Shown here piece after piece: positions 1,590-24,000 of a stretch of DNA of 24,000 bases. Each line of letters begins with the position of its first letter. Position 1 is the first letter of the stretch. The notes beneath the pieces were generated by a model. It made no database searches, had not been told where the DNA came from, and saw only the letters and a program-made list of their open reading frames with translations. The stretch spans positions 14,390 to 38,389 of the forward strand of contig URIR01000017.1 of the NCBI GenBank assembly GCA_900547955.1, read 5' to 3'. This stretch comes from an uncultured Eubacteriales bacterium (GTDB taxonomy: Bacteria; Bacillota; Clostridia; Christensenellales; QALW01). The translations under genes were made by a program, and so were the position numbers.

Positions 1590-3614
1590 ATGAAGCAAAA
1601 TTTACTGCGTTTTTCCTGTATCATTTTATGCGCCATCCTGCTTTTTTCCGTGCAGGGCTGCTCCGAAATACCTCCCGCCTCGCCTGGCCTGACCGGTACT
1701 CCCGGCCAAACTACTGATATTCCGAACCCATCGCCCACCCAAAGCGCCTTTAATCCCTTAGAATTATATTCGCCCTATGCGCCATATGACGGTATGTATA
1801 TTTTAGACGGCGTGCTGGATGAAAAACACATGTATCTGGATTCCTGCCTGTCAAACGACAAGCTGCTGGTACTGAGAATTGACACAGACACATATAAAAT
1901 TTCCGCCGTATTAGCCGACGTTAAAAGCAACAAAATACTTGCTCAGCGGGAACTGGAGGGAGAATCGGGCGAAAACAACCCCTGGAAAGCAGGCGAAGCG
2001 GGCGATGGATTTTATATTATGGGCTCCTTCCCATATAAGCTGTATATTTACGACGGCCAGTTAAACCAAACTGCCGAGGCAGATTATTCCGAGCATATTG
2101 ATGACAACATATACGTTGACCCTTCGGGAAGCTGCTACTGGTACTGCGACCAATTAAACGGACGAATAGCATGCGTGCCGTTAAAAGGCGGCGAGCCTGT
2201 ATATTACCCCATGAACGCCGTATGGGAAGAAGATTCGCTGGTTTATATAAGCTCTTCCTTCGAGCATTATCTGCTATTGACCTCGTATGCGGTCAATCAG
2301 TCGGTTTACCTCTACGACCTTAATAACAAAAGCTACGTTCAAAGCGGAGTTATACCCTTTGACATGAAAATATACAAGGACTGTCTGGCCTATCAAACCG
2401 AAGGAGCGCTCACATATACCCGTTTGGCCTCCCCCGGTTTATCCTACAGTCTGCCTCTTCAATGCGGCGACCCCGACGTTACCGGCGAATATGAAATAAA
2501 TCTGGCGCTAAGCGGCGAATGGTTTGCTACCTGTCAATACCTTGAGCAAAGCTGCATACTGCGGCTTTACGATATAAATTCAGGTCTGTCAGCCTCAAAA
2601 ATGGTATTTGACGGCGCGCAAACTCCCGTAAGTTTAAATAACCTGCATTTTGCAGAGGGATACGCCGTACTCTCCATTTTTGAAGGGGATATTTCCAGAA
2701 TGCTCTTATGGGACTGCTTCAGTAATGTAAATGAAGCTCCCGACGTCTCCCAGGCTGTCTCCAGCATAGGCAAGCTGGACTGCGAACGCTTAAACAGGCA
2801 GCTTAAAACCCAGCTTGAGGAAAGAGGAATAAACGTTTACTACGGGCAGGAGGGCGCGGGGGATTTCCCGGATTATACGGCGCAGGTAGTTACTGACCAG
2901 GAGCTTATATACCGCGGACTGACTCAGCTTATGTCCACTATTAAAAAATTCCCCGACGGTTTTTTTAACGACCTTTTAAGCGAGGAGGTAAGAGGCATAG
3001 ATATTTATCTATGCGGCGCGTTTACTCCTATTAACCCCGAATGGGGCATTGATACCGCCTCAGCTTTCGCCGTTGTATATAATTCCAGGCAGATAATCGC
3101 CATGAATCTGGATTATATCTATTCCTTTGAGCAGACCCTCGCCCATGAATTCATGCACGCTATTGAACGGCGCATACAGCAGATGGTTTGGGACGGCCAA
3201 ATAGAGCGCGGGCTTATTCTCTGGGACGCTTTTCTGCCTGAAAATTATTATTACGCTAATTCCTACCGCGCGCCGGACGGAACCGAATACGACAGCTCCA
3301 ACCGCGCGCAGTATACCCCCTACGACCCGGCAAGCTACAGCGACATATCCAACGTATATTTTGTGGACGGCTATTCAACTACCTTTGCCAGCGAGGATAT
3401 GGCTCGGATATTTGAAAATCTGTTTGCTCAGAACGAGCTGCCTTATTTCTTTGAAAGTCCTAATCTTCTAGTAAAGGCTCAATATCTCTGCGCCGTAATA
3501 CGTCAATGCCTGCCCTCGGTTAACGCCGTTCAGGAGGCGGTATGGGAACGGAACATAGAGCTTAAGCCGGTCTCATGGTTTGAGGAACGATATGAAGTAG
3601 AGGCTATGGGATAA
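1590..3614 (+). CDS. Putative secreted lipoprotein with C-terminal HExxH zincin-like motif (674 aa)
   Basis: AAGGAG RBS 8 nt upstream. Signal peptide MKQNLLRFSCIILCAILLFSVQGC ends in a lipobox-like Cys, followed by a P/T/S-rich linker. HEFMH at 3144-3158 (TLAHEFMHAIERRI), and FASEDMARIFENLF downstream could supply a third ligand. Confidence 0.8.
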   Translation: MKQNLLRFSCIILCAILLFSVQGCSEIPPASPGLTGTPGQTTDIPNPSPTQSAFNPLELYSPYAPYDGMYILDGVLDEKHMYLDSCLSNDKLLVLRIDTDTYKISAVLADVKSNKILAQRELEGESGENNPWKAGEAGDGFYIMGSFPYKLYIYDGQLNQTAEADYSEHIDDNIYVDPSGSCYWYCDQLNGRIACVPLKGGEPVYYPMNAVWEEDSLVYISSSFEHYLLLTSYAVNQSVYLYDLNNKSYVQSGVIPFDMKIYKDCLAYQTEGALTYTRLASPGLSYSLPLQCGDPDVTGEYEINLALSGEWFATCQYLEQSCILRLYDINSGLSASKMVFDGAQTPVSLNNLHFAEGYAVLSIFEGDISRMLLWDCFSNVNEAPDVSQAVSSIGKLDCERLNRQLKTQLEERGINVYYGQEGAGDFPDYTAQVVTDQELIYRGLTQLMSTIKKFPDGFFNDLLSEEVRGIDIYLCGAFTPINPEWGIDTASAFAVVYNSRQIIAMNLDYIYSFEQTLAHEFMHAIERRIQQMVWDGQIERGLILWDAFLPENYYYANSYRAPDGTEYDSSNRAQYTPYDPASYSDISNVYFVDGYSTTFASEDMARIFENLFAQNELPYFFESPNLLVKAQYLCAVIRQCLPSVNAVQEAVWERNIELKPVSWFEERYEVEAMG

Positions 3615-3639: not shown

Positions 3640-3668
3640 TTGAACAGGCAGGATAATCAGAGTATAAT
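3640..3668 (+). promoter_or_regulatory. Candidate sigma-A promoter of the GH78-like gene
   Basis: TTGAAC (3640-3645), exactly 17 nt spacer, TATAAT (3663-3668). About 60 nt upstream of ATG 3730. Confidence 0.55.
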
Positions 3669-3692
3669 GTACCGCGGAAGAGGTACATTATA
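3663..3692 (+). terminator. Perfect 11-bp inverted repeat: candidate terminator of the lipoprotein gene and/or operator overlapping the -10 box
   Basis: TATAATGTACC (3663-3673), 8-nt loop GCGGAAGA, GGTACATTATA (3682-3692), followed by the T-rich TTCTAATTATTTTATT. The 5' arm coincides with the predicted -10 hexamer. Confidence 0.4.
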
Positions 3693-3729
3693 TTCTAATT
3701 ATTTTATTCAATATTTTCGGAGGAGCTAA

Positions 3730-5919
3730 ATGGCAAACGCAAAATGGATATGGCTGAATGAACAAGAACCCTTTATTAATTGCTACGCCCGTTTTTTACA
3801 GGAATTTTTTCTTGCAGCCGGACAGGCGGCATGCGCTCAAATCCGCGTGGCGGCCTCGGACAATTATGTTCTAAGGCTGAACGGAGATTTCATCGCCTGC
3901 GGCCAATACAAGGATTATCCCGGCCTAAAGCATTACGATACGCTCAGCCTTGACCATTTTCTGAAGCCCGGAAAAAATCTGTTAGCTATAGACGTTTACT
4001 ACCAGGGCGCGCAAAGCTTTCAATGCGCTCAATCGGCCCCCCGGCTCTGGTATGAGCTTACAGTCGGAAACGACACCTACGCAAGCGGCCCGGAAACCCT
4101 CTGCCGGAAGCTTAAGGAATACAAGCAGGGCGAGATGGAATTAATAAGCCCTCAGCTCTCCTTTACCTTTGAATATGACGCGCGAAAAGAAAGCCTCAAT
4201 GCAGACTTAAGCCCCGCGCAGCCGGAGGGAGCTGAAAATCTCCAGGTTTTCGCGCCCGCGACCGAAGTTGCAGACCGCTGGAATACTCAGCTTGAGCCCC
4301 GGCCTATAAAAAAATGCGCTATAAAAGCTCCTGTAAATTCCCGTATTGCCGCGCAGGGCGTAATCCTAGAGCCGCCCGAGTCATTCGAGAAAGACGGCGG
4401 GGATACTGCGCCCGCAAAACGTATATATTATCAGTTAACCGCGCCGCGCTATGCCGAAGAGCTTATCAAGCTGCCCAAGAGCCACCCGCAGCCCAAAGCC
4501 TTCAATTCTCCCACGCTCACGTTTCCCTCAGAGGGCTATATTCTGCAAACTCCCGAGGGCTACGACGGCTGTTATATCCTGGCGGACCTGGGCGCAGAAT
4601 ACGCCGGATATCCTCTGCTGGATATTACCGCGCCCGAGGGCGCCCAGATTGACATAGGCTATGGGGAGCATTTAGAGGACGGCCGGGTACGCTCATATAT
4701 AGGGGGCCGGAACTTCGCCTTCAGATACACCGCCAAAAACGGCAGGCAGCGCTTTATAAATTATTTTAAGCGAATAGCCGGCAGATACCTAGAAATGCAC
4801 GTTAGCTCATGCGACCATATAATTGTTCATAACCTTACTTTGCTGCCCGAGGAATACCCGCTTAAGCGTCAGAGTTATCCGATGGGACTGACCGACGCAT
4901 TAGGGCGGCGCATTTGGGACACATCAGCCAGAACACTTGAATTATGCATGCACGAGCATTACGAGGACTGTCCTTGGCGCGAACAAGCGCTCTACGCCAT
5001 GGATGCGCGCAATCAAGCTCTGGCCGGATACTACGCCTTTAAGGAATTTGATTTTCCCGCAGCTTCATGGGCCCTTATGGCACAGGCCCTGCTGCCTGAC
5101 GGACAATTAAGAATTACCTCTCCTACCGACAGCGAATTAAGGATTCCCAGCTTTACCTTTGCCTGGGCCGTAGCCTCTGGAGAATTAGCGCAGTACGGCG
5201 GAATAGAGCGTATAACTTACATATCCGCTATAACCGAAATGCTGGATAAGGCGCTTAAGAGGCGGCGGAATGGGCTTTTATTAAATCCCGAGGGAGCGGA
5301 ATACTGGAATTTTTACGAATGGTCCAACGGGCTGGCGGGACATCTGGGGCAGGCTGTTCCTTCTATTTATCCCGAAAGCCCCTATAACGCCTTTTTCTGC
5401 GGCGCGCTCCGAGCAGGCGCGTTTCTATGCCGCGCCCTTAACGATACTGTCCGGGCGGAAAAATATGAACGGGCAGCCCAGGAGCTTAAAAACGCTTTTG
5501 AAATATTTTGGGACGATAAGCATAAGGCCTATTGCACGGGCAAATCCGGGGATGGCAGACCATATTCTGAATTAACTCAAGCTCTGGCTCTTAAATTTGA
5601 GCTTGTGCCGCCCAGCCGCTCACATAAGCTGCGCGAACGTTTAACAAAGCCGGACAACGGACTGGAGCCTATAACGCTAAGCCATTACATATATAAAATA
5701 GACGCATTAATGCAGGAACCGGAGCGTTATTTTAACACAGTTTATGAAGAAATTCTTTCAGTTTGGGGCAGCATGCTTTTCAAGGGCTGCAGTTCATTTT
5801 GGGAAACCATAGACGGCGCCGACGCTTTTGACAAGGCCGGCAGCTTATGCCACGGCTGGAGCGCGGCGCCAATTTACTTTTTCGGCAAATGGGCCAGCGA
5901 CTGCAAAACTAGCCTTTAA
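3730..5919 (+). CDS. GH78-like (alpha-L-rhamnosidase family) six-hairpin glycoside hydrolase (729 aa)
   Basis: GGAGGAG RBS. N-terminus MANAKWIW is typical of the rhamnosidase N-terminal domain. EDCPWREQALYAMDARNQAL resembles the DCPxRE(R/Q) motif opening the (alpha/alpha)6 catalytic domain, and SLCHGWSAAPIYFF resembles the conserved C-terminal CHGW block. The family assignment is by motif memory only. Confidence 0.65.
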   Translation: MANAKWIWLNEQEPFINCYARFLQEFFLAAGQAACAQIRVAASDNYVLRLNGDFIACGQYKDYPGLKHYDTLSLDHFLKPGKNLLAIDVYYQGAQSFQCAQSAPRLWYELTVGNDTYASGPETLCRKLKEYKQGEMELISPQLSFTFEYDARKESLNADLSPAQPEGAENLQVFAPATEVADRWNTQLEPRPIKKCAIKAPVNSRIAAQGVILEPPESFEKDGGDTAPAKRIYYQLTAPRYAEELIKLPKSHPQPKAFNSPTLTFPSEGYILQTPEGYDGCYILADLGAEYAGYPLLDITAPEGAQIDIGYGEHLEDGRVRSYIGGRNFAFRYTAKNGRQRFINYFKRIAGRYLEMHVSSCDHIIVHNLTLLPEEYPLKRQSYPMGLTDALGRRIWDTSARTLELCMHEHYEDCPWREQALYAMDARNQALAGYYAFKEFDFPAASWALMAQALLPDGQLRITSPTDSELRIPSFTFAWAVASGELAQYGGIERITYISAITEMLDKALKRRRNGLLLNPEGAEYWNFYEWSNGLAGHLGQAVPSIYPESPYNAFFCGALRAGAFLCRALNDTVRAEKYERAAQELKNAFEIFWDDKHKAYCTGKSGDGRPYSELTQALALKFELVPPSRSHKLRERLTKPDNGLEPITLSHYIYKIDALMQEPERYFNTVYEEILSVWGSMLFKGCSSFWETIDGADAFDKAGSLCHGWSAAPIYFFGKWASDCKTSL

Positions 5920-5966: not shown

Positions 5967-6128
5967 CCTCCGCCTACAGGCGGAGGCCCAAAACAGCTAA
6001 AGATGCATGGACGCGCCTTACCTCCGCCTGCAGGCGGAGGCCCAAAACAGCTAAAGATGCATAGACGCGCCTTACCTCCGCCTACAGGCGGAGGCCCAAA
6101 ACAGCTAAAGATGCATAGACGCGCCTTA
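5967..6128 (+). repeat. 54-bp tandem repeat, 3 full units (5967-6020, 6021-6074, 6075-6128) plus a partial 4th copy running into element A
   Basis: The unit is CCTCCGCC-TACA-GGCGGAGG-CCCAAAACAGCTAAAGATGCATAGACGCGCCTTA. Units differ from each other at single positions (loop TACA vs TGCA; CATGG vs CATAG). Each unit carries an 8-bp hairpin. Confidence 0.95.
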
Positions 6129-6278
6129 CCTCCGCCTACAGGCGGAGGTAAGGCGCCGGGGGGCGGCGTTTGGCGGCCGTTCCGGCCGCCGTGGCCGGGC
6201 CCTTCGGCCCGGCCACGGGGCAGGCTTTGCCTGCCCAAACGCCGCCCCCCCGGCGCATGGTCCAGCCGGACCATGCGC
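6121..6278 (+). repeat. GC-rich multi-hairpin element, copy A (H0 hairpin + closed three-hairpin junction + H5 hairpin)
   Basis: H0 is 6121-6156 (16-bp stem). P1 closing stem is CGGGGGGCGGCGTT 6157-6170 paired with AACGCCGCCCCCCCG 6238-6252. Inner hairpins are 6172-6190, 6191-6216 and 6218-6236. H5 is 6253-6278 (11-bp stem). The architecture and P1/P4 sequence match copy C. Confidence 0.9.
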
Positions 6279-6338: not shown

Positions 6339-6368
6339 AAAAAAACCGGCGCTTATATTAAGCGCCGG
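6339..6368 (-). terminator. Rho-independent terminator of pnp
   Basis: Minus strand: CCGGCGCTTA-ATA-TAAGCGCCGG (10-bp stem, 6346-6368) followed by TTTTTTT (complement of 6339-6345). It begins 27 nt after the pnp stop. Confidence 0.85.
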
Positions 6369-6394: not shown

Positions 6395-8494
6395 TTACTT
6401 TTTCTCATCCTTTTCAGGAATAAGCCCTTTACGAGTAAGATTGATGCGGCCTTTATCATCAATTTCAATAACCTTAACCATTATCTTATCGCCTATATTG
6501 ACAACATCCTCCACTTTTTCAACCCGCTCATTTGCAAGCTTTGAAATATGCACCAATCCATCCTTGCCTGGCAGCAATTCTACAAACGCACCAAAGGGCA
6601 TAATGCGCACTACAGTTCCAAGGTATACTTCGCCGACCTCCACATCTTTAGCTATGGCGTCTATCATCTTCTTAGCCGCAGCTCCAGAAGCGCTGTCTAC
6701 TGCATATATAATTACGCGCCCGCTATCCTCTATATCAATCTTAACGCCCGTCTCGTCTATTATCTTATTAATCATCTTTCCGCCGGGCCCTATAACCTCG
6801 CGTATCTTATCGGTATTAATATAGAAAATAATGGTTTTAGGCGCATAAGGCGAAACATCCTCTCTGGGCTTATCCAGCGTGGCAAGCATTTTATTAAGGA
6901 TAAACAGCCGCGCGTCCTTAGCCTGAGCCAGCGCGCGCTTAAGGATAGGCTCGTCTATACCCTTTATCTTTATATCCATCTGTATAGCGGTTATACCCTT
7001 TTCCGTGCCCGCCACCTTGAAATCCATGTCTCCCAGGAAGTCCTCAAGTCCCTGAATATCAGTCAAAACAACTACCTTATCGCTCTCGGTATCCTTAATA
7101 AGACCCATTGCCGCTCCGGCCACAGGCGCCTTTATAGGAACGCCCGCATCCATAAGGGAAAGAGTTGAACCGCATACGCTGGCCATAGAGGTGGAACCGT
7201 TAGAGGAGACCGCCTCAGAAACCACTCTTATGGCATAGGGAAATTCCTCCTCAGAAGGAATCATGGGCTCAAGCGCGCGCTCGGCTAAAGCGCCGTGCCC
7301 TATCTCGCGGCGTCCCGGACTGCGGATAGGCCGTGCTTCTCCCGTGCTGTAGGGCGGCATATTGTAATGATGCATATACCGTTTCTGCTCTACCTCGTCT
7401 ATCCCGTCCAGCTCCTGCGCGTCATTAAGCGCTCCGAGAGTAGTCAGGGATATGACCTGCGTCTGGCCGCGGGTAAATACAGCCGAGCCATGTGTACGCG
7501 CAAACATATGCACATCGCACCATATTGGGCGTATATCGAATACGCCGCGGCCGTCCGGCCGAATACCATAATCCAGTATCTTGCGGCGCATGGTTTCCTT
7601 TTTTATCGCATAAAGCGCATCTGAAATCTCCCTCGTCTTTTCAGGATATATTTCAGCAAAATGCCCCTGCACCTCTTCTTCTACCTGATTTTCTCTGGCC
7701 TCGCGCTCCTTGCGGTCAAAGCATTCCATAACCCATGCTATCTTATCCGTAGCAAATTCGCGCACGTCCTTTTCAATGTCCTCAGGCACCTTATAATAAT
7801 CGAAAACCTGCTTTTCCTTGCCTACCTCAGCCTGAATCATTTCCTGCCAGGCGACTAATTTCTTAATTTCCTCATGAGCTATCATGATAGCTTCAAGCAT
7901 CTGGTCCTCAGTAACTTCCTTGGCGCCCGCTTCCACCATCATTACGGCGTCCTTGGTACCCGAAACGGTAAGATTAAGCACGCTCTTTTCCCTCTGCTCG
8001 CTGTCAGGATTAATAACGTACGCCCCGTCTACCATGCCTATGGAAACGCTGCCCGTAGGCCCGTAAAATGGAATATCAGAAATAGTAAGCGCAACGGAAG
8101 AGCCAATCATAGCATAAATTTCAGGCGGAATATTGTTATCCACGCTCATTGCAGTAGCCACTACCTGCACATCATTATAAAAGCCCTTAGGAAATAAAGG
8201 CCTTATCGGACGGTCTATAAGGCGGGATGTAAGAATAGCCTTTTCGGAGGGCCTGCCCTCTCTGCGCATAAAGCCGCCTGGAATCTTACCGACCGAATAC
8301 TGCTTCTCTTCAAATTCCACGCTCAAAGGGAAGAAATCTATACCCTCGCGCGCCTGCTTAGACATAGTCGCATTAACCAAAAGCGCCGTATCTCCGCATC
8401 TTATAAGGCATGAGCCGTTCGCCTGCTCAGCGTATTTGCCAATTTCGACAGACAGCTTCCGCCCCGCAAACTCGGTTTCAAATGTTTTAAACAT
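6395..8494 (-). CDS. pnp: Polynucleotide phosphorylase (PNPase), 699 aa
   Basis: Full-length match in character: [29 protein letters not shown]-terminus, two RNase PH-like halves, a KH region ([15 protein letters not shown]) and a C-terminal S1 domain ([34 protein letters not shown]). GAAGGAG RBS. Confidence 0.97.
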
Positions 8495-9068: not shown

Positions 9069-9257
9069 CTAAGCGTCAGGTTTTCTCTTATGCGCCGCCG
9101 AACTCAAGATATTTTGTACCGACGTAGTCTTGCACATTATAATTTCTTTATCATCTCCAATAAAGAAGGTCAAACTGTCGCCGGCATTTATATCCAGCTC
9201 GCATCTTATTTTTACAGGAATCATAATTAAACCGTTCGCACAAATAGTTATCGTCAT
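9069..9257 (-). CDS. AbrB/MazE/SpoVT-fold DNA-binding mini-protein, paralog 1 (62 aa)
   Basis: MTITICANGLIMIPVKIRCELDINAGDSLTFFIGDDKEIIMCKT fits the swapped-hairpin AbrB-domain pattern (G-x-hydrophobic-x-I/L-P-x-x-I-R-x-x-L-x-I-x-x-G-D). Start is taken at ATG 9257, behind the conserved leader AATGAAAGAGGGATT (complement of 9262-9276). Confidence 0.75.
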   Translation of the reverse strand: MTITICANGLIMIPVKIRCELDINAGDSLTFFIGDDKEIIMCKTTSVQNILSSAAHKRKPDA

Positions 9258-9360
9258 TAATAATCCCTCTTTCATTATTTAATTTAATGTATTTATTCTG
9301 CAGAACAAAACTTTAGATACAAAATGTTAAGATAAATTTAAGCGGAAGCGGATAAAACTA

Positions 9361-9503
9361 TTCAGCTAAGGGCCGGCCTAGCGGGGCGGGGCGCGCCGTA
9401 GGGCAAGCTTTCAGCTTGCCCGGGCCGAGCCGGAACGGCTCGGCTACGCGGCCGCAGGCCGCGGACGGCGCGCCCCGCCCCGCTAGGCCGGCCCTTAGCT
9501 GAA
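9361..9503 (-). repeat. GC-rich multi-hairpin element, copy B (inverted orientation relative to A and C)
   Basis: A perfect 39-bp closing stem (9361-9399 pairs with 9465-9503) encloses three hairpins: 9401-9421, 9424-9444 and 9447-9463. The reverse complement of 9446-9464 is identical (19/19) to 11546-11564 of copy C and occupies the same position, directly after the 5' arm of the closing stem. 52 of 60 nt in 9421-9480 are G or C. Confidence 0.9.
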
Positions 9504-9736
9504 ACTCAAAATATTAAGCATTCTGCCCAATCGCCCAAGTAGCTTTTTCTATAATATATTAACAATTTTCTAACAAAATCAATCTTGCGACAATATTTTT
9601 AACTCTATGTCTATTATAAAATAAAGAATGCAAAATGCAATAGGAAGTTATGTTGTAATAATGTTTTAATTGAAATAGATATTACAATTTTGTATTTAAT
9701 ACAAAAATATTGTTGTCAATATATTTTTTATATAAG

Positions 9737-9907
9737 TTAAATTGGTAGTGCATTAATTACAGTCTGCACTTTTGACACTTTGCAAATTATTATCGCATCG
9801 TAATTTATAAAAAATGTCATCAAATCTCCCGCCTTAATATTTAAACGTTTCCTTATTGAAGCTGGAAGCATAATCCTGCCATTTTCATATATAGTAACAA
9901 GCTGCAT
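9737..9907 (-). CDS. AbrB/MazE/SpoVT-fold DNA-binding mini-protein, paralog 2 (56 aa)
   Basis: MQLVTIYENGRIMLPASIRKRLNIKAGDLMTFFINYDAIIICKV. Start is ATG 9907, preceded by the conserved leader AATGAAAGAGTGATT (complement of 9914-9928). Confidence 0.75.
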   Translation of the reverse strand: MQLVTIYENGRIMLPASIRKRLNIKAGDLMTFFINYDAIIICKVSKVQTVINALPI

Positions 9908-10169
9908 ATTAACAATCACTCTTTCATTGATAATTCAGCATAATTTATATATAAACTCTACTAATTCAATAATTTATTGATTATAAAATATATAAATACA
10001 TATTTTGACTATATATGATTTTTCAAAATATTATTTTTATATATTTTATAATTAAACAAATTTCTTTCTTATTTACATGTATTATAACTAACTGCCTTGA
10101 AAAATCAAGAGAAAAGAATGCAATAAATTATCGAATAAAATAGGCTTATACCATAATTTTGACACAAGC

Positions 10170-10628
10170 CTAAAAATCTGACTTTGATACATAAATAATA
10201 TGAATTTTTTTCTTTTGCGCATATTCCAGCGTGCCTGCCGCACCTCCCCAAGGATGCGTTATATATACTACAGCGCAGTCCGAAATGTTTACCAGATATT
10301 TATTTCTCTGCAGAATTGCTATCTTAGGATGATATCTTTCCAGCGCCGGATATATTATCTCGTCATACCGCTTCGCCTTATCTGGATCCACTTTAGGGTA
10401 TGGAGTAACCAGCACGCTTTTTATATCATGCTTTTTCTTCAATTCACACAACACTCCCGCGCACAAAGCGTCAAATTGTCCCATGCCCCCGTTATAAAAA
10501 ACTTTTGTCCCGTTTAATATAAGCTCTTTTACCGCACGATACACGCGCTCTTTAACAGCATTTTTATCATAAACAGTACTATGGCCTATAAAGAAGCAGC
10601 TTGCAAGTAAACTATTTCCCTTTTTCAT
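10170..10628 (-). CDS. SLOG-superfamily protein, DUF1273/YpsA-like (152 aa)
   Basis: The motif order matches DUF1273 proteins as I remember them: CFFIGHS (cf. CxFTGHR), NGGMGQFDALCAGVLCELKKK (cf. GxxxGxDxxAAexVLelK), LQRNKYLVNISDCAVVY (cf. RNxxMVDxSDxxiav) and GGAAGTLEYAQKKK (cf. GGTxxtvxyAkk). Start ATG 10628 has no clear SD and overlaps the upstream RHH gene by 17 nt. The alternative ATG is 10652. Confidence 0.75.
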   Translation of the reverse strand: MKKGNSLLASCFFIGHSTVYDKNAVKERVYRAVKELILNGTKVFYNGGMGQFDALCAGVLCELKKKHDIKSVLVTPYPKVDPDKAKRYDEIIYPALERYHPKIAILQRNKYLVNISDCAVVYITHPWGGAAGTLEYAQKKKIHIIYVSKSDF

Positions 10629-10788
10629 GATATATAAAACGTTCAATCGCATAATTATCTATATGCTTCTTTAATATATTATTTATATATTGGGAAAAAG
10701 AGCGTCCATCCAATTCCGACAGTTCTCTTATTTTTGTTATTATATCTTCATCCAAGGATATACTGACCTTCTGCTTTAGTACACGCAT
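10612..10788 (-). CDS. Ribbon-helix-helix (CopG/Arc/MetJ-type) DNA-binding protein (58 aa)
   Basis: MRVLKQKVSISLDEDIITKIRELSELDGRSFSQYINNILKKHI shows the beta-strand/helix/helix pattern of RHH proteins. GGAGGG RBS lies 7 nt before ATG 10788. The stop TAG (10614-10612) lies inside the SLOG gene start region. Confidence 0.8.
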   Translation of the reverse strand: MRVLKQKVSISLDEDIITKIRELSELDGRSFSQYINNILKKHIDNYAIERFIYHEKGK

Positions 10789-11233
10789 GAATACACCCTC
10801 CTGAATAATATAATAACATAATTTTAGTTTATATTGGATATAATACGACAAAGTAATACAAAATAATAAAAAGTAGTATGAAGTAATATACTATCTTACT
10901 TAATATATTTTATAAAATTAAATATCTGTGGAATAATGTTGCATAAATATATATTTATAATACAATTTTATATATAAATTTATTTTATTCTACTTTTAAT
11001 ATGAATATATATTGATTTCTACGTAATTTCCTATTGCAATTTATTTTAAATCTCTTATAATAGATACGGAAATAAGAAAATTGTTCTTATATAAATTGTT
11101 GTGGAATAATTAGGATTTTTGCTAGTTAAAATTTACATGTATGCTCAAATTGTGTTGTCCGATTATTCATAATTTAAATTGGCATAAAAAACTTATATAT
11201 ATACTAATTTAAATAATGAAAGAGTGATTTTTT

Positions 11234-11458
11234 ATGATACTTGTAACAATTTATGCTAACGGTCAGTTTATGATTCCCTTGCCAATCCGTCAGAGACTTA
11301 ATATTAAGCCTGGAGATTATCTGGCGTTTTTCATCAAAAACGATAAAGAGTTGGTCATGTGTAAAACCTCCGCTATTCAGGATGTTATCATGGCCAATTC
11401 TAAAAATACCATTCAATTTCCCGTAAAAGAGTCTATTAGCTCAAATTCGGGCGACTGA
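11234..11458 (+). CDS. AbrB/MazE/SpoVT-fold DNA-binding mini-protein, paralog 3 (74 aa)
   Basis: MILVTIYANGQFMIPLPIRQRLNIKPGDYLAFFIKNDKELVMCKT. Conserved leader AATGAAAGAGTGATT at 11215-11229. A possible promoter is TTGGCA-17 nt-TACTAA about 35 nt upstream (weak call). Confidence 0.78.
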   Translation: MILVTIYANGQFMIPLPIRQRLNIKPGDYLAFFIKNDKELVMCKTSAIQDVIMANSKNTIQFPVKESISSNSGD

Positions 11459-11476
11459 AAGCTCCAAAAGCTGCTT

Positions 11477-11674
11477 CGCGGGCCCGAAGGGCCCGCGGAC
11501 GCGCCGGATGCCGCGAAGCGGCATCCGGCGCCGGGGGGCGGCGTTCCGCGGCCTGCGGCCGCGTGGCCGGGCCCGTTTACGGGCCCGGCCCAGGGCAGGC
11601 TTCGCCTGCCCGAACGCCGCCCCCCCGGCGCATGGCCCGGCCGCAGGCCGGGCCATGCGCGCTGCGCAAGCGCA
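11477..11674 (+). repeat. GC-rich multi-hairpin element, copy C
   Basis: Extra hairpin at 11477-11497. H0 is 11501-11531 (14-bp stem). P1 is CGGGGGGCGGCGTT 11532-11545 paired with AACGCCGCCCCCCCG 11613-11627. Inner hairpins are 11547-11563, 11565-11590 and 11593-11611. H5 is 11628-11660 (15-bp stem). The element fills the whole convergent abrB3/ribF intergenic space. Confidence 0.9.
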
Positions 11675-11694
11675 AAAAAGCCGCCGCCCAAAAA

Positions 11695-12612
11695 TCAATT
11701 TTCCGCATTAACTCCTGATTTGATTCCACGTGTTGAAAGATACGCTCTTGCTATAAGCTCGTCCTGACAAAGCTGAGACGATAGCTCATCTTTAGAAGAA
11801 AATTTTCGCTCGGCCCTTATACGCTTTAAAAATGAGACGCGCATATCCTTACCGTAAAAATCTCCCGAGACGTCAAATAAAAAGGTCTCTATAGTAATAA
11901 CTCCAGTATCTGAAACAGTAGGGCGCACGCCTATATTAGTCATACCCTGATAATCCCGCCCGTTTATCCGAGCAGCCGTTACATATACACCCCGGGCCGG
12001 AACCAGCTTTTTATCAGAGTACTCAAGATTAGCGGTAGGAAAACCTAAAGTATGCCCCAGCTCCTGCCCTCGTGTCACTTTACCCGCAATAAAATAATTA
12101 TATCCCAGCATCTTTGCAGCAGCGTCTGCCTCCGAATCTAAAAGTCTATTTCGTATAAGCGTGCTGCTTATTCGCTCTCCGTCATCTGTCAGTATTGGTG
12201 GAATTATAAAGGTTTTATATCCATATTTATCTGCCAGGCGCACTATATCGCGCGGCGTACCCGACGCCCTGCAGCCAAACGTATGATTACTGCCTGCAAT
12301 AATCCCTCCCGCGTTAAAGCGCGCACAGATGTAAGCAATATATTCCTCCGGACTCATATTAGCCAGTATACTGTCAAACGTCAGCACCAGACATTCAAGA
12401 CCCGTATTTTTTAGCATGCTTATTCGCTCGTCATTTAAGGTAAGCAGCTTTATTTTTTTGCCCAATACTTCGCGCGGATGACAGTTGAAAGTAAGAATGC
12501 ACGGCTTCATATTCATCTGTCCGCCTATCCGCTTCGCTTGCCTGAATAATTCCTGATGCCCTCTATGCACTCCGTCAAACGTGCCCAGTACCAATATACT
12601 TTTTTTCTCCAT
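11695..12612 (-). CDS. ribF: Bifunctional riboflavin kinase / FMN adenylyltransferase (305 aa)
   Basis: LVLGTFDGVHRGHQEL (FAD synthetase nucleotidyltransferase motif). The C-terminal kinase half has GFPTANL and ETFLFDVSGDFYGKDMRVSFLKRIRAERKF. Confidence 0.95.
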   Translation of the reverse strand: MEKKSILVLGTFDGVHRGHQELFRQAKRIGGQMNMKPCILTFNCHPREVLGKKIKLLTLNDERISMLKNTGLECLVLTFDSILANMSPEEYIAYICARFNAGGIIAGSNHTFGCRASGTPRDIVRLADKYGYKTFIIPPILTDDGERISSTLIRNRLLDSEADAAAKMLGYNYFIAGKVTRGQELGHTLGFPTANLEYSDKKLVPARGVYVTAARINGRDYQGMTNIGVRPTVSDTGVITIETFLFDVSGDFYGKDMRVSFLKRIRAERKFSSKDELSSQLCQDELIARAYLSTRGIKSGVNAEN

Positions 12613-22292: not shown

Positions 22293-22577
22293 AATCAAAT
22301 TAAAACAAACCGTTGAGTAAGAAGAGTAGCCTGATATACCTCCTTTCAGAGAGCTGCTAATGGTGGAAAGCGGCAGGGCATGGAATTAGGTGAATGGACT
22401 TACGAGGGCAGGTCGAAAAGCGTCGGCGTTTAGTAGTGCCTGCTGGGAGCTTCACCCATTATCCGCGAAGCGCGTATATTTTGAGTACGCGAAATAAGAG
22501 GACGTTTAAATACGTCAATTTGGGTGGTACCGCAGAAGCAAGGCTTTTGTCCCTTAGTGGGATAAAAGCTTTTTTGT
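22293..22577 (+). promoter_or_regulatory. T-box riboswitch leader, tryptophan specifier (UGG)
   Basis: Stem I elements are AGAGAG and a distal loop AATGGTGGAAAGC. The specifier-loop context is GAA-TGG-A, with TGG at 22395-22397. The T-box sequence AATTTGGGTGGTACCGCAG is at 22518-22536. The terminator is GGCTTTTGTCCC-TTAG-TGGGATAAAAGCT plus TTTTTTG (22541-22577). Confidence 0.9.
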
Positions 22578-22626: not shown

Positions 22627-24000
22627 ATGAAAAAAGTACCCTACAGATTTTATTTAACCGAGGAGCAGATTCCGACGCAGTGGTATAATCTGCGCGCCGA
22701 TATGCCCGAACAGCCCGACCCAATTATCAACCCGGCCACCATGCAGCCTGCTCAGCTTTCAGATTTGCTGCCTGTATTCTGCGAGGAACTAGCCCGTCAG
22801 GAGCTGGACAGCAAGACCAGATACTTTGATATACCCGGCGAAATTATGGATGTATACCGAATATACCGTCCTGCGCCATTAATAAGGGCTTATAATCTTG
22901 AAAAGGAATTAGATACTCCCGCCAAAATATACTATAAATTCGAGGGCAACAACACCTCAGGGAGTCATAAATTAAATTCCGCGCTTGCACAGGCATATTA
23001 CGCAAAAAAGCAGGGCTTGACCAGCCTGACTACTGAAACAGGAGCAGGACAATGGGGTACGGCTCTTGCCGAAGCCTGTTCCTATTTTGGTCTGCCGCTG
23101 ACCGTATATATGGTTAAGGTTTCATACGAGCAAAAGCCTTTCCGCAAAACAGTCATGCAAACCTTTGACGCAAATGTTATAGCCAGTCCCAGCAACACTA
23201 CGGCGGTAGGCCGCGCAATATTGGAAAAAGACCCTGATACCGGCGGAAGCCTTGGCTGCGCAATTAGTGAAGCTGTAGAAAAGGCTGTAACCACGCCAGG
23301 ATGCAGATATGTGCTTGGGTCAGTACTAAATCAGGTGCTTCTTCATCAATCCATTATAGGCCTTGAATCCAAAAAGGCCATGGAGCTTTTAGACGAGTAT
23401 CCGGATATTGTAATAGGCTGCGCGGGCGGAGGATCCAATTTAGGCGGATTAATAGCGCCGTTTATGCAGGACAAGCTGCTGAAAAAGGCTAATCCGCGTA
23501 TTATCGCAGTAGAACCGGCGTCCTGTCCTTCTCTGACCAGAGGAAAATACGCTTATGATTTCTGTGATACAGGTAAAATAACGCCATTAGCCAAAATGTA
23601 CACACTAGGCTGCGGCTTCATACCTTCCGCCAATCATGCCGGAGGACTAAGATATCACGGAATGTCTCCAATATTATCAAAGCTTTATCACGACGGCTAC
23701 ATGGAAGCCATATCGGTTGAGCAGTCCAAGGTCTTTGAGGCAGCTGTGCTCTTCTCCAAAAAAGAAACAATATTGCCTGCACCCGAATCCGCGCATGCAA
23801 TATACGGAGCAATTCAAGAAGCGCTCCGCTGCAAAGAAAGCGGTGAAAGCAAAACCATTCTCTTTGGTCTTACAGGAACCGGTTATTTTGATATGACCGC
23901 ATATAACGCCTATATTACCGGTAATATGAGCGACTATATTCCCACCGACGAGGATTTGCAAAGGGGCTTTGACGGACTTCCTCAGGTACCTGGCCAATAA
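22627..24000 (+). CDS. trpB: TrpB2-type tryptophan synthase beta-like PLP enzyme (457 aa)
   Basis: The long N-terminal extension (MKKVPYRFYLTEEQIPTQWYNLRADMPEQPDP) is typical of TrpB2. The PLP-lysine motif is GSHKLNSALAQAY and the phosphate-binding loop is GCAGGGSNLGG. AAGGAG RBS. The stop TAA is the last codon of the window. Confidence 0.9.
   Translation: MKKVPYRFYLTEEQIPTQWYNLRADMPEQPDPIINPATMQPAQLSDLLPVFCEELARQELDSKTRYFDIPGEIMDVYRIYRPAPLIRAYNLEKELDTPAKIYYKFEGNNTSGSHKLNSALAQAYYAKKQGLTSLTTETGAGQWGTALAEACSYFGLPLTVYMVKVSYEQKPFRKTVMQTFDANVIASPSNTTAVGRAILEKDPDTGGSLGCAISEAVEKAVTTPGCRYVLGSVLNQVLLHQSIIGLESKKAMELLDEYPDIVIGCAGGGSNLGGLIAPFMQDKLLKKANPRIIAVEPASCPSLTRGKYAYDFCDTGKITPLAKMYTLGCGFIPSANHAGGLRYHGMSPILSKLYHDGYMEAISVEQSKVFEAAVLFSKKETILPAPESAHAIYGAIQEALRCKESGESKTILFGLTGTGYFDMTAYNAYITGNMSDYIPTDEDLQRGFDGLPQVPGQ

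Follow-up and report, generated by a model that had tools for sequence, protein, structure and literature searches.

Nested GC-rich palindromes in uncultured gut Clostridia are best read as a lineage-restricted family of DNA-level repeats

Introduction

Most of what is known of interspersed palindromic repeats such as REP, BIME, REPIN and MITE elements comes from Proteobacteria and a few cultured Firmicutes. REPs are imperfect palindromes of 20-40 nt with a conserved terminal tetranucleotide, GTAG/CGTC (PMC3733652), and both REPs and REPINs, the latter consisting of two conserved inverted REPs around a spacer, are mobilised by RAYT (TnpA-REP) transposases (PMC3116915, PMC8266576, PMC2817692). 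The elements that we describe here share with the REP/BIME/REPIN group the high copy number, the GC-rich and extragenic palindromes that fold as ssDNA or RNA, the composite mosaics, the enrichment at gene 3' ends, the long vertical persistence and the compensated stems. With bacterial MITEs (the Correia elements of Neisseria, pneumococcal RUP/BOX and cyanobacterial Nezha; PMC3184786, PMC2229807) they have in common that they are short, non-coding, dispersed, intergenic and stably folded, and that terminal inverted repeats bound the copied unit. They also resemble the GC clusters of yeast mitochondria and the hairpin elements of sponge and fungal mitochondria, GC-rich intergenic hairpins in lower-GC genomes that are mobile by a route which is probably transposase-independent, concentrate substitutions in their loops and merge and shuffle into complex palindromes, and for which co-conversion of flanking sequence has been suggested (PMC4478555, PMC2800124). 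Finally, template switching is a mutational process acting on ordinary sequences, through which perfect stems arise and are repaired, inverted-repeat arms are homogenised and lengthened, and spacers become inverted (PMC8794818, PMC8604942, PMC13100816), and its marks (perfect Watson-Crick stems, multi-base compensation, inversion of spacers and loops, arm expansion) are also found in the present elements.

The elements come from uncultured gut Clostridia and were found in a window of 24,000 nt, by which we mean the whole stretch of DNA analysed. Our best reading is that they are nested DNA palindromes of a single family, which is high in copy number and restricted to one lineage, a small group of these bacteria, and that they behave as selfish or structural repeats at the DNA level rather than as an RNA gene. 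To judge from Rfam and the searchable literature, their architecture has no earlier description: the conserved four-helix core always forms the tip of a long perfect palindrome specific to its locus, and there are nested versions and flip/flop states. This family provides a natural system for asking how perfect stems last, through selection or through template switching and arm conversion, and how a spread specific to hairpin tips could work.

Results

The window contains three elements, A, B and C (Table 1). The first-pass annotation had described A and C as copies of one structure in which a hairpin (H0) is followed by a closing stem (P1) around three hairpins and then by another hairpin (H5). 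Direct reading of the sequence recovered all the stems listed for A and C at their coordinates, and the minimum-free-energy folds reproduced the hairpin-cloverleaf-hairpin layout. This arrangement holds for A and C, but it is not the basic unit of the family, which is the P1-bounded core without H0 and H5. The minimum-free-energy prediction for A was -153 kcal/mol (z -13.0, with none of 200 shuffles as stable), and those for C and B had z values of -10.7 and -14.8, respectively. Element A folded equally well as plus-strand RNA, as minus-strand RNA (z -13.2) and as ssDNA (z -13.3). B aligns to A and C solely on the opposite strand and is thus an inverted homologue.

Table 1. Coordinates of elements A, B and C and of the adjoining tandem array in the window
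Feature	Position	Strand	Basis or remark
54-nt tandem array	5967-6148	+	Tandem Repeats Finder: 3.4 copies, 97% matches
Element A, nested second-order form	6121-6278	+	Sequence, folds, nhmmer and covariance-model matches at 6159-6249
A, hairpin H0	6121-6136/6141-6156	+	
A, P1	6157-6170/6238-6252	+	6 G against 7 C
A, P2	6172-6179/6183-6190	+	
A, P3	6191-6201/6206-6216	+	
A, P4	6218-6225/6229-6236	+	
A, hairpin H5	6253-6263/6268-6278	+	
A, core (unit common to the whole family)	6157-6252	+	30-copy alignment, model R1, alignment A4
Element B, standard first-order form, inverted orientation	9361-9503	-	Inverted repeat, fold, alignment to A and C
B, closing stem around three hairpins	9361-9399/9465-9503		39 bp, perfect; variant P1 = GGGGCGCGCCGT
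B, core	9389-9475	-	Covariance-model match, 58.3 bits
Element C, nested form	11475-11675	+	Sequence, fold, covariance-model match at 11534-11624
C, extra hairpin	11475-11499	+	
C, H0	11501-11531	+	
C, core	11532-11627	+	P1 = 11532-11545/11613-11627
C, H5	11628-11660	+	
C, small hairpin	about 11661-11675	+	

The core is a GC-rich unit of ~80-95 nt closed by P1 (GGGGGCGGCGTT/AACGCCGCCCCC, with its G run and C run), a 12-14 bp inverted repeat at the core ends. Within P1 there are three hairpins whose order is fixed in the 30-copy alignment: P2 (GCGGCC type), P3 (GGCCGGGC type) and P4 (GGCAGGC type). Most copies extend P1 outward by a near-perfect stem of 14-35 bp that differs at each locus, and the total closing stems reach up to 48 bp. 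Cores that are 93-96% identical occur within unrelated outer stems, and the likeness between near-identical copies ends exactly at the G/C runs of P1 on both sides, which shows that the core is the unit that is copied. No target-site duplication was found at the core ends in the copy comparisons, since the flanks, typically arranged as AAAG-core-CTTT, remain reverse-complementary to one another as far as the core edge and form inverted, not direct, repeats.

A and C represent a rarer, nested (second-order) subtype in which a hairpin, the core and another hairpin follow each other. Second-order cloverleaves with the outer stem GGGGGGCGGCGCGG were also observed at L015 3835-3975, L048 300-520 and L021 2440-2650; they hold two hairpins with either a long simple hairpin or an entire first-order core between them. 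Simple long perfect hairpins (stems of 13-28 bp, loops of 3-5 nt), each of them unique, are in excess in the core-bearing lineage; examples are L015 3882-3939, L020 4957-5003, L029 9-67, L044 672-728 and L048 14368-14426. Away from cores we counted 44 in 484 kb (~9 per 100 kb), whereas 116 kb of core-less relatives contained 2 (1.7 per 100 kb). Several of them have a common apex, GAAAGC-NNN-GCTTTC, and the core, with its AAAG and CTTT flanks, thus takes the place of the loop of such a hairpin.

Searching species-representative genomes with the exact P1 pattern (GGGGGCGGCGTT-N50-80-AACGCCGCCCCC) returned 31 loci, 27 of them from two MAGs, 'Ca. Neochristensenella gallicola' and 'Selenomonadales bacterium CIM:MAG 469', the second of which shares synteny with the window and is 72-83% identical to it at the nucleotide level. 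In the other four loci (Glaciecola, Sphingomonas, an actinomycete and one uncultured bacterium) the interior is unrelated to that of the family. The same pattern matched 31 metagenome contigs; family copies, mostly strain variants of the same loci, were present in 26, and the remaining five were not recognised as members. Adding copies with compensated P1 variants, found with an nhmmer sequence profile and a covariance model built from the copies, brought the family to at least 60 distinct copies, lying in the window and in the two related gut MAG species, which bears out the family proposed in the first-pass annotation. Their density, counted away from the copies that served to find the loci, is ~1 per 9-15 kb, which by extrapolation gives an estimate of ~100 or more per genome. 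No copy was present in 116 kb of relatives at 75-87% PNPase identity. The elements also have a practical consequence, as they break short-read assemblies: the assemblies of the host genomes are fragmented because contigs break at elements. Metagenome contigs L041, L056, L059, L065, L073 and L074 begin or end in or near an element.

These elements had not been recognised as any named RNA family, and our searches agree with this. In the window, Rfam at the gathering threshold gave no match over the elements, its sole match being a T-box leader (described below), and permissive thresholds returned nothing for the elements but noise far below threshold; ARAGORN made no tRNA or tmRNA call. Furthermore, neither a scan of viral contigs nor BLAST searches of phages and plasmids matched the family.

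Pairing is almost perfect. In the closing stems of 38 folded copies, 1202 pairs are Watson-Crick, 11 are G·T and 5 are A·C; there are also 3 further mismatches and 14 bulges (mainly differences in G/C-run length), and the hairpins of the same copies contain 915 Watson-Crick and 5 G·T pairs; overall, pairing is ~99% Watson-Crick, with G·T taken as no commoner than A·C. In a covariation alignment of 113 distinct rows, which includes both strands of each copy and is fitted to the model, standard pairs occupy 97.1% of the cells, compared with 71.6% in shuffles (0/500) and 35-51% with slid partners, and changes on both sides were present in 38 of the 38 pairs of this two-strand, model-fitted alignment. 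The pairing exceeds chance by a wide margin, and the folded copies and the alignment agree with the earlier observation that the stems differ between copies yet stay paired. The loops have 3-4 nt, and the reverse-complement sets GAA/TTC and GCA/TGC are both common. Core orientation relative to the neighbouring genes (4 same, 7 opposite) shows no bias.

According to the first-pass annotation, conservation of pairing indicated selection on structure. Pairing is indeed conserved, but selection is one of several possible readings of it, and probably not the leading one: the strictness of the Watson-Crick pairing, the symmetry of the strands and the inversion of interiors and loops (see below) favor DNA palindromes under templated processes over a selected RNA. 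The relevant structure is shown to be strand-symmetric, strictly Watson-Crick DNA, and these two properties, together with the lack of orientation bias, point to DNA-level palindromes and not to an RNA under selection. In this respect, a family of structured non-coding RNAs acting in trans, or of tRNA-like RNAs, could account for the very stable, covarying structure, and the four-helix junction has a superficial likeness to the tRNA cloverleaf. However, such an RNA would have to lack a match in Rfam and ARAGORN, strand polarity and orientation bias, use almost no G·U pairs, have unconstrained loops that flip and interiors that invert between strains, be framed by neither promoter nor terminator, and exist in ~100 or more extrapolated copies, each with its own locus-specific outer stem. 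We therefore regard this explanation as extremely improbable.

Strain comparisons, in which the flanks are 95-99% identical, revealed that parts of the elements can be turned around. Between L005 and L056 the flanks, the outer stem and P1 are identical and the whole P2-P4 interior is inverted. Loops flip as well, from GTCA to TGAC between the strains of L008/L054 and from TAC to GTA in one simple hairpin, and a second-order interior is inverted between the two species. The length of the G/C runs also varies between strains, and comparison of L018 with L059 showed one copy with about five uncompensated changes. In total, the strain differences comprise 47 that affect a single arm, 40 at unpaired positions and 3 that are mirrored; with 3 mirrored against 47 single-arm differences, the comparison did not directly demonstrate arm conversion between strains. 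It should be noted that purifying selection on pairing could explain the same strain pattern as arm homogenisation. In L007, a whole hairpin has been duplicated 3 kb away (L007_3187 and L007_6472), and at least five mirrored positions have changed since, with compensation.

Orthologous sites were informative about the history of the copies. An element is present after pnp, at the site of A, in L033, L072 and L063, and at the site of C in L004/L033, where the differences in H0, P3 and P4 are compensated. Sites filled in two or three species, with flanks 73-82% identical, are the A site, the C site, L003/L020, L008/L019 and L021/L027. This sharing fits long-term retention and possibly a host function. 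The occupants of these sites are no more alike than random pairs, and some of them have opposite orientation or unrelated stems; as unrelated outer stems occur at orthologous sites with flanks 81% identical, we rejected the proposal that outer stems are, as a general rule, ancestral terminators. A and C have a likeness of 0.85 and 0.91 to each other within one genome and of 0.73 and 0.76 to their orthologues, which indicates local gene conversion (concerted evolution). Because of this local concerted evolution, the two copies cannot be taken as independent witnesses of the structure, as they had been at first.

We also looked for sites without an element. All strain-level orthologues were filled, these having been located through the core itself, and neither an empty site nor an insertion polymorphism was seen among them; one apparently 'empty' orthologous site turned out to be an old deletion remnant. 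Searches with the outer arms found no core-less hairpins, and no transposition intermediate was seen in these comparisons. When PNPase homologues were used as the query, the A site was filled in the sister species (L033, L072), and distant relatives had no element and unalignable spacers, among them L080, with no core after pnp. The S15 of the window was matched on a 547-nt contig only.

The minus strand of the window carries a conserved operon, rimP-nusA-ylxR-L7Ae-infB-rbfA-nrnA-truB-ribF, followed by rpsO and pnp. Element A lies between two convergent genes, a rhamnosidase-like gene at 3730-5919(+) and pnp at 6395-8494(-); C is also located between convergent genes, a small AbrB/MazE-like gene at 11234-11458(+) and ribF at 11695-12612(-); and B lies between two small genes upstream of rpsO. 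Among 31 copies whose gene setting was determined, 17 are between convergent genes, 11 between tandem and 3 between divergent ones. All of them are intergenic, so the GC-rich ORFs over the elements are unlikely to be genes. Of the 31 copies, 28 adjoin one or more gene 3' ends, and hairpins frequently abut stop codons. A T tract (at least five T in 6 nt) comes right after P1 in 14 of 55 copies, compared with a background of 5.6%, and an A tract comes before it; with a looser threshold the figures are 22 of 55 and 20%.

These locations argue for the main rival of our reading, a selected, cis-acting RNA at transcript 3' ends that would serve as a bidirectional intrinsic terminator, as an insulator between convergent genes or as a block to 3'-5' exonucleases, a role that has been described for some REPs. 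The occupied sites common to species with 73-82% flank identity and the equal folding of both strands would also be consistent with it, and the tolerance of Watson-Crick pairs alone would follow if both strands were transcribed. However, no U tract follows most of the copies, including A, B and C, and pnp has a canonical terminator of its own at 6346-6368, before A. Moreover, the stems are ~99% perfect although one mismatch in 35-48 bp would hardly matter to an RNA, inversion and nesting of the interior seem to be unconstrained, close relatives carrying the same operon lack the element and the L059 copy carries its uncompensated changes. We consider this explanation rather unlikely, although both it and the DNA-level reading could hold at once.

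B and C bracket an AT-rich island (9504-11480; 24-34% GC). Three paralogous AbrB/MazE-like small genes with near-identical start regions are found in this part of the window, at 9069-9275(-), 9737-9919(-) and 11234-11458(+), and the island also contains an RHH/DUF6364 gene at 10612-10851(-) and a weak SLOG/YpsA-like gene at 10170-10652(-). The ribF-rpsO interval is occupied by a different 5.6-kb island in the sister species (L033) and by a 268-nt spacer alone in relatives (L034). Integron attC sites carry RYYYAAC ... GTTRRRY boxes at the hairpin base and a variable apex, and lie in arrays next to intI; branched hairpin recombination sites occur among them. The elements could therefore be thought of as folded single-strand recombination sites, with the inverted pair B and C bracketing and mobilising this 2-kb island, whose gene content varies between species and which relatives lack. 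Against this, L033 has the C-site element and a different island without any B-site element, so B and C were rejected as the ends of the island. In addition, the copies are single and dispersed beside core genes and not in cassette arrays, a conserved apex on a variable base is the reverse of attC, GTT lies on the 5' arm and AAC on the 3' arm (a polarity reversed with respect to attC core sites), and no integrase was seen in the window. An integron attC identity was discarded on these grounds, and we judge recombination sites of this general kind to be very unlikely.

The 54-nt tandem array abuts and enters H0 of element A, its unit being composed of the H0 5' arm, the apex hairpin and a 34-nt spacer. 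The orthologous A site of L033 has no such array; an outermost stem, AAAAAAGGGCGGGCGGC/GCCGCCCGCCTTTTTTT, encloses H0, the core and H5 there instead. Slippage beside core-bearing structures seems common. At L029 5208-5440 a 12-nt tandem repeat (GCGCATCGCCCC) follows immediately after a core.

We also searched the DNA of the lineage for a transposase. All-against-all clustering of ORFs across loci found neither a transposase nor a recurrent ORF in about 0.5-0.7 Mb, and neither this clustering nor tblastn revealed a parent IS with matching ends. The tblastn searches used IS200/IS608 TnpA queries, which match each other at E 7e-24, and their best E value was 0.29, with nothing significant. A short, frame-shifted stretch resembling the TnpA N terminus (AHT..CKYHAVF / EYRRK) was noted at L023 3961-4060 (equal to L053 8850-8897), ~280 nt from a core, with its best match at 3976-4023; it is probably due to chance (tblastn E 0.29-2, Pfam negative).

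Discussion

The resemblance to REP/BIME elements that had been proposed for A and C, with the remark that they are far more elaborate, was upheld when known systems were compared. The repeated unit here is a core of ~80-95 nt with a four-helix junction and not a single stem-loop of 20-40 nt, it begins with a G run and has no invariant GTAG or CGTC (alignments A2 and A4), and second-order forms are nested. A REPIN has two conserved inverted REPs, whereas in our elements the apex is conserved and the arms are locus-specific. REPs and REPINs go with a cognate single-copy RAYT gene flanked by the repeats, and none came to light in the ~0.5 Mb of lineage DNA that was read. Lacking both the tag and the REP doublet, the elements are not REPs in the strict sense. 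Compared with MITEs, they lack a target-site duplication and have inverted flanks up to the core, whose position is in every case central to a long perfect palindrome. The searches turned up no parent IS with ends like theirs, and no insertion polymorphism was seen among the fetched orthologues, all of them filled and all located through the core. Mitochondrial GC clusters, for their part, have an AG/TAG target duplication that is absent here, and our elements differ from them in being located on a bacterial chromosome, in their larger and more regular three-hairpin core and in their position at hairpin apexes. Judging from these comparisons, the closest analogues in behavior are REPINs (PMC3116915) and mitochondrial GC clusters (PMC4478555). 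The template-switch literature concerns a process acting on ordinary sequences and not a repeated family with a sequence-conserved core; such a process explains how the stems are kept, not how the core spreads.

Branched DNA hairpins with two inverted interior states invite one more comparison. The ITRs of parvoviruses (AAV) and the telomere palindromes of Streptomyces consist of a long GC-rich stem with small internal palindromes that form a branched DNA hairpin (T, Y or cloverleaf) with flip/flop states, and they are the termini of linear replicons with Rep or terminal-protein functions. The likeness is limited to the branched-hairpin shape and the two interior states: our copies are dispersed within chromosomal contigs among housekeeping genes and no replication protein goes with them, and an origin as hairpin termini of a linear replicon was rejected for that location. 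The flip/flop seen here would be explained more simply by inversion between arms.

Taken together, the explanation that we favor, somewhat more probable than not in our judgement, is that A, B and C belong to a REP/BIME/MITE-like family of DNA palindromes in which template switching or arm homogenisation preserves the perfect arms. During replication, template switching within one strand or across the fork, together with homogenisation from arm to arm, would keep the arms complementary, and this fits the perfect arms, the inversions of loops and interiors and the extension of the stems. Nearby copies would exchange sequence by gene conversion. Persistence at gene 3' ends, especially between convergent genes, may reflect that insertion is least harmful there, and copies with A and T runs on their flanks may in some cases also serve as bidirectional terminators or 3' exonuclease barriers. 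Two candidate routes could explain the spread to new hairpin apexes: recognition of the P1 ends by a transposase acting in trans, or copying from one hairpin tip to another, either break-induced or by template switching.

The second route can be taken further, to cores that act as transposase-independent 'apex-homing' palindromes, a proposal that we think unlikely. Hairpin or cruciform tips would break or stall replication in the core-bearing lineage, and repair or template switching would then copy the core from another hairpin through the short shared apex motif (AAAG...CTTT). This one process would also make the arms perfect, lengthen them and invert them. The proposal would account for the confinement of the cores and of the excess of simple long hairpins to one lineage, for the conserved apexes in unique stems and for the nesting of the structures. 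If it were true, the family would be a self-propagating DNA-structure replicator without any protein of its own.

Finally, two features of the window are distinct from the elements. An AT-rich inverted repeat at 3653-3702 (21 nt, 90% complementary, with an 8-nt spacer), located between the genes at 1590-3614 and 3730-5919, bears no relation to the GC-rich palindrome family. The T-box leader (Rfam RF00230, 115 bits) lies at 22304-22557(+), upstream of a gene for a PLP-dependent enzyme at 22627-24000.
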